IMG/VR virus record: IMGVR_UViG_2875697941_000001
Reading direction: 5' to 3' (one strand)
Length of the DNA stretch: 64,000 nucleotides
Source: a virus
Lineage: Duplodnaviria > Heunggongvirae > Uroviricota > Caudoviricetes
This document shows, one piece after another, positions 11,920 through 11,985 of this stretch. Under the pieces are notes generated by a model that saw nothing but the letters and a program-made list of their open reading frames with translations, searched no databases and had not been told where the DNA came from. Position 1 is the stretch's first letter, and each line of letters begins with the position of its first letter. The position numbers were made by a program, and so were the translations under genes.

Positions 11920-11936
11920 ATTGCTCTAATAATTCC
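11920..11936 (+). promoter_or_regulatory. C1 repressor operator-like site
   Basis: ATTGCTCTAATAATTCC, 13/17 to ATTGCTCTAATAAATTT, 1 nt after stop of upstream gene. Confidence 0.5.
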
Positions 11937-11946
11937 ATATTTTTAA

Positions 11947-11976
11947 AACGTGATGTACACTCATCACGTTTTTTAT
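11947..11976 (+). terminator. rho-independent terminator
   Basis: perfect 9-bp stem AACGTGATG/CATCACGTT, 6-nt loop, followed by TTTTTT. Confidence 0.65.
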
Positions 11977-11985
11977 TAGAGCAAT
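11969..11985 (-). promoter_or_regulatory. C1 repressor operator-like site (inverted)
   Basis: TTTTTTATTAGAGCAAT, reverse complement ATTGCTCTAATAAAAAA. Confidence 0.5.

Follow-up and report, generated by a model that had tools for sequence, protein, structure and literature searches.

Known C1 operators around a conserved terminator-like hairpin at the pmgQ-pmgR junction of a P1-type phage-plasmid

Between positions 11920 and 11985 of a 64-kb stretch of phage DNA (hereafter the window, meaning the whole stretch that was analysed), a hairpin followed by a T-tract is bracketed by two C1-operator-like sites in inverted orientation. What does such an arrangement do? The original prediction was that it could couple termination with repressor binding, by roadblock or looping, and that it may mark an operon boundary or a recombination scar. 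The window belongs to a P1-type phage-plasmid: across 11200-12700, it is 99.8% identical to RCS47, 99.0% to P7 and 98.8% to P1, and an E. coli plasmid matches it at 100% identity across 11600-12500. Overall, the regulatory junction between pmgQ and pmgR is real but ordinary, and essentially known; no long-standing open question is touched by it. Our analysis adds to the known picture a conserved hairpin that is probably a terminator, invariant operator cores as against polymorphic flanks, and a kinetic switch at the junction.

Two C1 operators known from P1 and P7

The C1 operator consensus is an asymmetric sequence of 17 bp, ATTGCTCTAATAAATTT (PMC8546580). The two matches at the junction and the gene of the repressor are as follows.

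11920-11936, plus strand: Op86a, or OpmgRa (in P7, Op(sht[a])); ATTGCTCTAATAATTCC, C1 operator match
11969-11985, minus strand: Op86b, or OpmgRb (in P7, Op(sht[b])); ATTGCTCTAATAAAAAA, C1 operator match
23646-24497, minus strand: c1 repressor gene, 283 aa; NCBIfam NF041318 phage_rep_C1 equivalog, 608.8 bits versus a cutoff of 500

The inverted pair that had been predicted is present. Each site agrees with ATTGCTCTAATAAATTT at 14 of 17 positions, with mismatches confined to the last four, so that both carry the 13-nt core ATTGCTCTAATAA without a mismatch. C1-type sites are in large excess in the window: 11 were found with at most three mismatches, versus 0.25 expected, and six with at most one mismatch in the 13-nt core, versus 0.09 expected. 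Perfect 13-mer cores occur four times in the whole window, two of them being Op86a and Op86b. In addition, the immC region of the window is 99.4% identical to that of P7. Op86a starts 2 nt past the stop codon of pmgQ.

Comparison with the operators of reference P1 gave identical positions. In the P1 record (AF234172), 82152-82168 on the plus strand corresponds to Op86a and is labelled as a monovalent C1-controlled operator, OpmgRa, formerly Op86a, for the control of pmgR and pmgS expression. The position of Op86b corresponds to 82201-82217 on the minus strand, labelled OpmgRb, formerly Op86b. The P7 record (AF503408) carries Op(sht[a]) and Op(sht[b]) at identical positions. Judged by position and sequence, Op86a and Op86b are genuine C1 operators, and both are probably occupied by C1.

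The operator pair is a rediscovery of a named feature, already known and annotated in the GenBank records of P1 and P7. The locus of P1 OpmgRa/OpmgRb with the predicted promoter PpmgR, and that of P7 Op(sht[a])/Op(sht[b]), is the same locus with the same flanking genes at offset coordinates, in a relative that is about 99% identical; the differences from P1 OpmgRa/OpmgRb are trivial and amount to a few polymorphic bases immediately flanking the operators. The two sites are best annotated under the existing P1 names Op86a/Op86b and do not represent a new element. A full-text literature search, whose coverage did not extend to Lobocka et al. 2004, found no P1 paper naming the Op86 operators. As a separate observation, the loopometer paper has P1 RepA, not C1, as its subject.

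The other C1 operators of P1 (O26/Op82, Oref, Omat, OpmgT/Op88 and the Op99 cluster at c1-coi) present the same asymmetric 17-bp site to the same repressor. They typically overlap the sigma-70 promoter of an early or lytic unit, and early expression is common to them and to pmgR-pmgS. Unlike Op86a/b, they are mostly annotated as single sites. In the inspected parts of the P1 record and in the window, Op86a/b is the only convergent inverted pair whose members lie 32 bp apart with a terminator-like hairpin between them.

The variation around the operators was followed in 81 P1-like contigs collected via the PmgS protein, a sample that is therefore unbiased for the intergenic operators. None of the 13 columns of the Op86a core is variable in these contigs, and one of 13 is variable in the Op86b core. 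Polymorphic hot spots are located just outside the operators, at 11905-11912 and 11986-11991. This pattern indicates that the operator sites are under purifying selection relative to their flanks.

The hairpin between the operators

The space between the two operators is occupied by a candidate intrinsic terminator made of two parts.

11945-11972, plus strand: terminator hairpin; 5' arm AAAACGTGATG (11945-55), loop TACACT (11956-61), 3' arm CATCACGTTTT (11962-72)
11969-11977, plus strand: terminator T-tract TTTTTTATT; TTTTTT at 11969-11974, then ATT; common to the 3' end of Op86b

The hairpin starts 27 nt past the pmgQ stop, on the plus strand. Its core comprises 7 bp, including four G-C pairs (-8.5 kcal/mol), and A-U pairs lengthen the stem to 11 bp (-12.9 to -13.4 kcal/mol, z -5.3, 0/200 shuffles). 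The perfect 9-bp stem of the original prediction falls inside this range of 7 to 11 bp, but the qualifier "strong" was an assumption, since the stability of the stem is moderate. The whole 66-nt unit forms a compound imperfect palindrome that folds at -26.9 kcal/mol (z -7.9). In our own scan of both strands of the 64 kb, the hairpin is among only 12 sites that combine a perfect stem with a T-tract, and its sequence occurs once in the window. A standard terminator scan of the window did not call the hairpin at 11945-11972, probably because the stem extends into the T-run. An Rfam search of 11700-12300 at E<=1 matched no family. In the GenBank records of P1 and P7, the hairpin between the operators is unannotated, and the inspected parts of the P1 record appear to be without any terminator features.

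The overlap of the second operator with the U-tract, also predicted, is found: the T-run 11969-11974 lies inside Op86b. The mismatches of Op86b (AAAA where the consensus has ATTT) are T-tract residues. Since the departures of Op86b from the consensus are exactly these residues, operator and terminator share bases.

The search for diverged relatives gave three lineages in total in which the arrangement is kept in register: the P1 type, a group of Salmonella plasmids and Cronobacter phage JK004, which share some 70% identity at the level of both DNA and PmgS protein. The unit reads ATTGCTCTAATAATTTTAATTCTTTAAAACATGGTGtatcatCACCATGTTTTTTATTAGAGCAAa in the Salmonella-plasmid lineage (pCVMN1543 etc.) and ...GAAGCATGGTGtatcatCGCCATGTTTTTT... 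in JK004. A search of genome contigs for relatives returned only two near-identical Escherichia loci, and scans of IMG/VR and metagenomes returned mostly P1-type copies. PmgS-like proteins of about 20% identity from Citrobacter and Shigella phage-plasmids were rejected as unusable for comparison; they are found in a different context, beside VRR-NUC genes.

In both of the ~70%-identical lineages, the operator cores and the inverted bracketing geometry are kept. The stem, CGTGATG/CATCACG in P1, reads CATGGTG/CACCATG in the Salmonella lineage, and two of its pairs are fully compensatory among the three lineages (G-C to A-U and A-U to G-C). Stem cells are paired at 97%, versus 41-57% for slid controls. 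The same 11-bp hairpin is formed in all three lineages, at -13.4 kcal/mol in the P1 type, -15.5 kcal/mol in the Salmonella plasmids and -14.0 kcal/mol in JK004. The flanking A4 and T6 runs are kept, and the six T columns are invariant in every variant. JK004 and several P1-type variants contain G-U pairs, which are tolerated only in plus-strand RNA. A strand-bias test on transitions in the P1-type stem was not significant (six to seven sites preserving G-U pairing on the plus strand versus four disruptive). Hence, to judge from these alignments, it is the pairing and not the stem sequence that is conserved, as an intrinsic terminator predicts; the three lineages represent effectively one or two independent events.

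The hairpin thus behaves like a conserved intrinsic terminator, at which transcription would probably end. With the canonical Rho-independent terminators known from E. coli and E. coli phages, among them bidirectional ones that have an upstream A-tract and a downstream T-tract, it shares a G/C-containing stem, a 6-nt loop, a U-run directly after the stem and a post-stop position, and compensatory structural conservation is seen in these terminators as in the 11945-11972 hairpin. Unlike them, it has a short core (7 bp, 4 G-C), its U-tract doubles as an operator and a promoter is apparently nested in it.

A transcription-unit boundary between pmgQ and pmgR

The genes and expression signals around the operators are listed below.

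11217-11918, plus strand: pmgQ (hdmD in P7), last gene of the pmgL/pmgN-pmgQ unit; glycosyltransferase-like; annotated as PmgQ (P1) and HdmD (P7)
11921-11949, plus strand: PpmgR, sigma-70 promoter predicted in GenBank; -35 TTGCTC (11921-26), 17-bp spacer, -10 TAAAAC (11944-49); P1 82153-82181
11933-11961, plus strand: alternative candidate promoter; weak -35 TTCCAT (11933-38), 17-bp spacer, -10 formed by the loop hexamer TACACT (11956-61)
11990-11995, plus strand: Shine-Dalgarno sequence of pmgR, AAGGTG, 4 nt before the ATG at 12000; kept in P1-type variants
12000-12218, plus strand: pmgR (shtA in P7), 72 aa; PHROG 3177
12220-13482, plus strand: pmgS (shtB in P7), 420 aa, coiled-coil; PHROG 1660 "PmgS-like head morphogenesis"; second gene of the C1-controlled unit
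13502-13537, plus strand: second hairpin, AATGCTGGTGG / AGTGCTC / CCACCAGCATT, then TTTTTTT (T7 tract); directly past the pmgS stop

The unit had been placed between a GT-A-like gene and a coiled-coil gene. The product of the upstream gene, pmgQ, is glycosyltransferase-like (PHROG 1962 "glycosyltransferase", E 4.9e-128; no match to Pfam). The next gene downstream, however, is the 72-aa pmgR, and the coiled-coil pmgS comes second. The phenotype of pmgR concerns head completion and head-tail joining: the gene is essential, its deletion leading to unjoined heads and tails, and the defect is complemented in trans (PMC9024508). The second hairpin, past pmgS, has a folding energy of -18.1 kcal/mol (z -4.7). 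In the sequence, pmgR-pmgS is a two-gene unit with a predicted hairpin and T-tract site on either side.

Published P1vir RNA-seq data give gene-level log fold changes relative to a no-phage control (PMC8201110 Table S1). In the wild-type host, the values at 10 min are 7.4 for pmgO, 7.0 for pmgP, 6.9 for ppp, 7.0 for pmgQ, 9.0 for pmgR and 10.0 for pmgS, and pmgR and pmgS are among the genes most strongly induced at this time (PMC8201110). From 10 to 30 min, the values rise by +4.3 to +4.6 for pmgO, pmgP, ppp and pmgQ, and by +1.8 for pmgR and +1.7 for pmgS; the same step at the pmgQ-pmgR junction is seen in the dksA host (PMC8201110). This 10-to-30-min rise is unaffected by gene length. The kinetics of pmgR and pmgS resemble those of the C1-controlled early units ant1, hrdC/dmt and pmgT-V, and the upstream genes follow the late pattern. 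This switch of kinetic class between pmgQ and pmgR marks the junction as the boundary of a transcription unit and the site of an early promoter.

The operon boundary that had been suggested is therefore borne out by the annotated PpmgR, by the second terminator past pmgS and by the kinetic switch exactly at the junction. The kinetics are also consistent with limited read-through of late transcripts, which we roughly estimate at ~0 to 0.6, gene-level data of this kind fitting a terminator with a promoter or a promoter alone. CRISPRi roadblocks in the genes from pmgL through pmgQ, except pmgN, still allow plaques to form, and pmgR itself also scored as non-essential on knock-down (PMC10695390). 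That upstream roadblocks are tolerated while pmgR is essential by deletion is weakly consistent with an independent pmgR promoter.

Two candidates for this promoter were considered, and both are weak by consensus (4.5-8 bits with a rough position weight matrix, or PWM, built from general consensus frequencies). The -35 hexamer of PpmgR, TTGCTC, sits inside Op86a. The PpmgR combination TTGCTC/17/TAAAAC is retained in P1 and in the Salmonella lineage. The A at the second position of its -10 (11945) gives way to G in JK004, whose hexamer is TGAAGC, and in naturally occurring P1-type variants; with the rough PWM, PpmgR ranks second in P1 and outside the top six in JK004. The loop hexamer is TACACT in the P1 type and TATCAT in the two other lineages, and all 21 distinct variants have T, A and T at its positions 1, 2 and 6. 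Combined with its weak -35, the loop -10 gives the top sigma-70-like score of the same rough PWM in all three lineages. By these alignments, conservation is higher in the loop hexamer than in the predicted -10 of the annotated PpmgR. A standard promoter scan of the window called no promoter at the pmgQ-pmgR junction, and no late (Lpa-type) promoter is evident in the intergenic region by eye when compared with LPpmgL.

Three points are useful for the P1 transcription map: the comparison of lineages speaks for a conserved terminator between the operators, pmgR-pmgS is a short early unit that lies between two putative terminators, and the annotated -10 of PpmgR is open to doubt. Such additions could refine the map and help engineers of P1-derived vectors or phage-plasmids.

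A proposed working of the junction and its alternatives

We consider it likely that the junction is the intrinsic terminator of the pmgL-pmgQ unit nested in the C1-repressed promoter region of pmgR-pmgS, with three overlapping functions. The hairpin 11945-11972 and its T-tract would provide the Rho-independent end of rightward pmgL/pmgN-pmgQ transcription, which would be driven mainly from the Lpa-dependent late promoter LPpmgL. The same 66 bp would also contain, nested within them, the sigma-70 promoter from which pmgR-pmgS is transcribed. Its transcript would probably start near 11956, at the loop, if PpmgR is used, or near 11968 with the loop -10. Either start leaves the 5' arm incomplete, so that the unit's own transcript would escape the terminator: no hairpin would form, and transcription would continue to the terminator at 13502-13537. 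Op86a would cover the -35 region, and Op86b the start or the first transcribed stretch. C1, together with its corepressor Lxc, would silence pmgR-pmgS in a lysogen, and inactivation of C1 would switch the two genes on as an early transcript. Because the operators would bracket the promoter, repression would be sufficient reason for their inverted, flanking placement.

In a more elaborate version, the terminator loop would be the -10, the U-tract would be the operator end, and C1/Lxc at Op86b would, besides repressing the promoter, modulate termination or events coupled to transcription at the junction, giving a trifunctional "insulator-switch". If true, this would be a compact kind of module not described for P1; we regard it as improbable.

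Direct coupling of C1 binding to termination, either by a roadblock at the hairpin and T-tract or by looping or clamping of the 49-bp segment, finds some ground in the geometry. Op86b overlaps the T-tract and gives up consensus positions for the residues shared with it, Op86a lies 9 nt upstream of the hairpin, and the inverted bracketing is kept in three lineages. There is also a likeness to repressor roadblocks (dCas12a/LacI type, P1 and lambda, PMC10695390), in which a protein stands in the path of the polymerase beside a termination signal. Unlike in those systems, the placement of Op86a/b would be explained by promoter repression, so that coupling is not needed. The hairpin and U-tract already make a complete intrinsic terminator, and no observation requires coupling. 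In addition, activity of the upstream late promoter would fall at a time when C1 is inactivated, so that repressor and read-through would rarely coincide, and the P1/P7 annotations describe monovalent operators controlling pmgR/pmgS expression. As for looping, DNA stiffness makes 49 bp far shorter than the usual length of protein-mediated DNA loops, and a loop over this centre-to-centre distance is physically implausible. We therefore regard coupling as unlikely.

We are about equally doubtful that the inner inverted repeat is a promoter element acting at the level of DNA, that is, a site for a dimeric protein, or a cruciform or other architecture that presents the loop as a -10. The invariant T, A and T of the loop, the -10-like TACACT and TATCAT, and stem transitions without significant strand bias would all suit it. 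A protein site would nevertheless be expected to keep its sequence, and here the stem sequence changed with complementarity kept, which makes a sequence-specific protein site a less good fit. The A4/T6 runs, the location 27 nt downstream of a stop codon and the differing kinetics of the flanking genes are expectations of a terminator, and the G-U pairs of JK004 and P1-type variants would be tolerated only in plus-strand RNA. Less likely still is a promoter upstream of the hairpin, for instance at the end of pmgQ, with the hairpin serving as an attenuator or stabilizer in the 5'-UTR of the pmgR-pmgS mRNA. The weakness of both candidate promoters would leave room for it, but no better promoter-like combination was found upstream of 11920 in any lineage. 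Moreover, a constitutive terminator in the leader would shut off the essential pmgR without a known antiterminator, and pmgR and pmgS are strongly induced at 10 min. We give almost no credence to an origin as a recombination scar or a remnant of a small palindromic mobile element. It could appeal to the compound imperfect palindrome formed by the 66-bp unit and to the mosaic nature of P1-like plasmids, some of which lose homology within pmgQ or pmgR. However, what would be its "terminal repeats" are copies of the C1 operator, found at functional sites across the genome, and the hairpin core occurs nowhere else in the window. The suggestion of a scar fails on two further observations: three lineages with some 70% identity to each other keep the unit in register and with the same neighbouring genes on either side, and the homology breakpoints, at 11741, 11806 and 12032, lie inside pmgQ or pmgR, away from the edges of the palindrome.

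Hairpins bracketing pmgR and pmgS

The essential pmgR gene (12000-12218, 72 aa) is unannotated in several deposited P1-like records, including SJ46, pCrono684-2 and some 'P1' records. Together with pmgS, it is a two-gene unit bracketed by two hairpins, the candidate terminator located between the C1 operators Op86a and Op86b (11945-11972) and a second, clean hairpin just downstream of the pmgS stop codon, which carries no annotation in the P1 record:

13502-13537, + strand, 11-bp hairpin followed by T7, -18.1 kcal/mol

The built-in terminator scan (window 11000-13000) is apparently blind to hairpins in which A-T pairing could lengthen the stem so that it takes in part of the T-run. 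Hairpins 11945-11972 and 13502-13530 were both missing from its output and were found by a separate hairpin and T-tract scan.

Elsewhere in the window, three features were observed in the ref/mat region:

27040-27060, - strand, strong hairpin and T-tract
27167-27183, C1-operator-like site
27251-27268, + strand, strong hairpin and T-tract

Here, the C1-operator-like site sits between the two opposite-strand hairpins.

Sequence variation at the pmgQ/pmgR junction

Among 81 P1-like contigs, the operator cores are invariant, whereas short patches just outside both of them (11905-11912 and 11986-11991) are hypervariable. At least nine distinct 5-mers are found in the stretch that separates Op86b from the Shine-Dalgarno sequence of pmgR. 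The loop of the upstream hairpin (11956-11961) corresponds to a -10-like hexamer, TACACT in the window and TATCAT in the two other lineages (Salmonella plasmids and Cronobacter phage JK004), with no variation at positions 1, 2 and 6. In natural variants, A-to-G changes are seen at the second base of the annotated -10 element of the predicted promoter PpmgR (TAAAAC, 11944-49).

On a larger scale, homology with several P1-like plasmids starts at window positions 11741, 11806 and 12032, similarity being lost upstream. Because these breakpoints fall within pmgQ or pmgR, the alignments indicate mosaic replacement of pmgQ in these plasmids, near but not at the palindrome.

The C-terminal region of PmgS

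A Citrobacter portucalensis phage-plasmid encodes a full-length PmgS homologue (20% identity, BLASTP E 9e-18), whose C-terminus matches RNA_pol_A_CTD (PF03118; 28.4 bits, Pfam gathering score 23.8) as well as HhH families. Since it aligns with this homologue, the following region of PmgS may be an alphaCTD-like helix-hairpin-helix DNA-binding domain:

aa ~345-400 of PmgS (12220-13482), C-terminal region of interest

A DNA-binding reading of this region fits poorly with the labels 'head morphogenesis / sheath contraction'.
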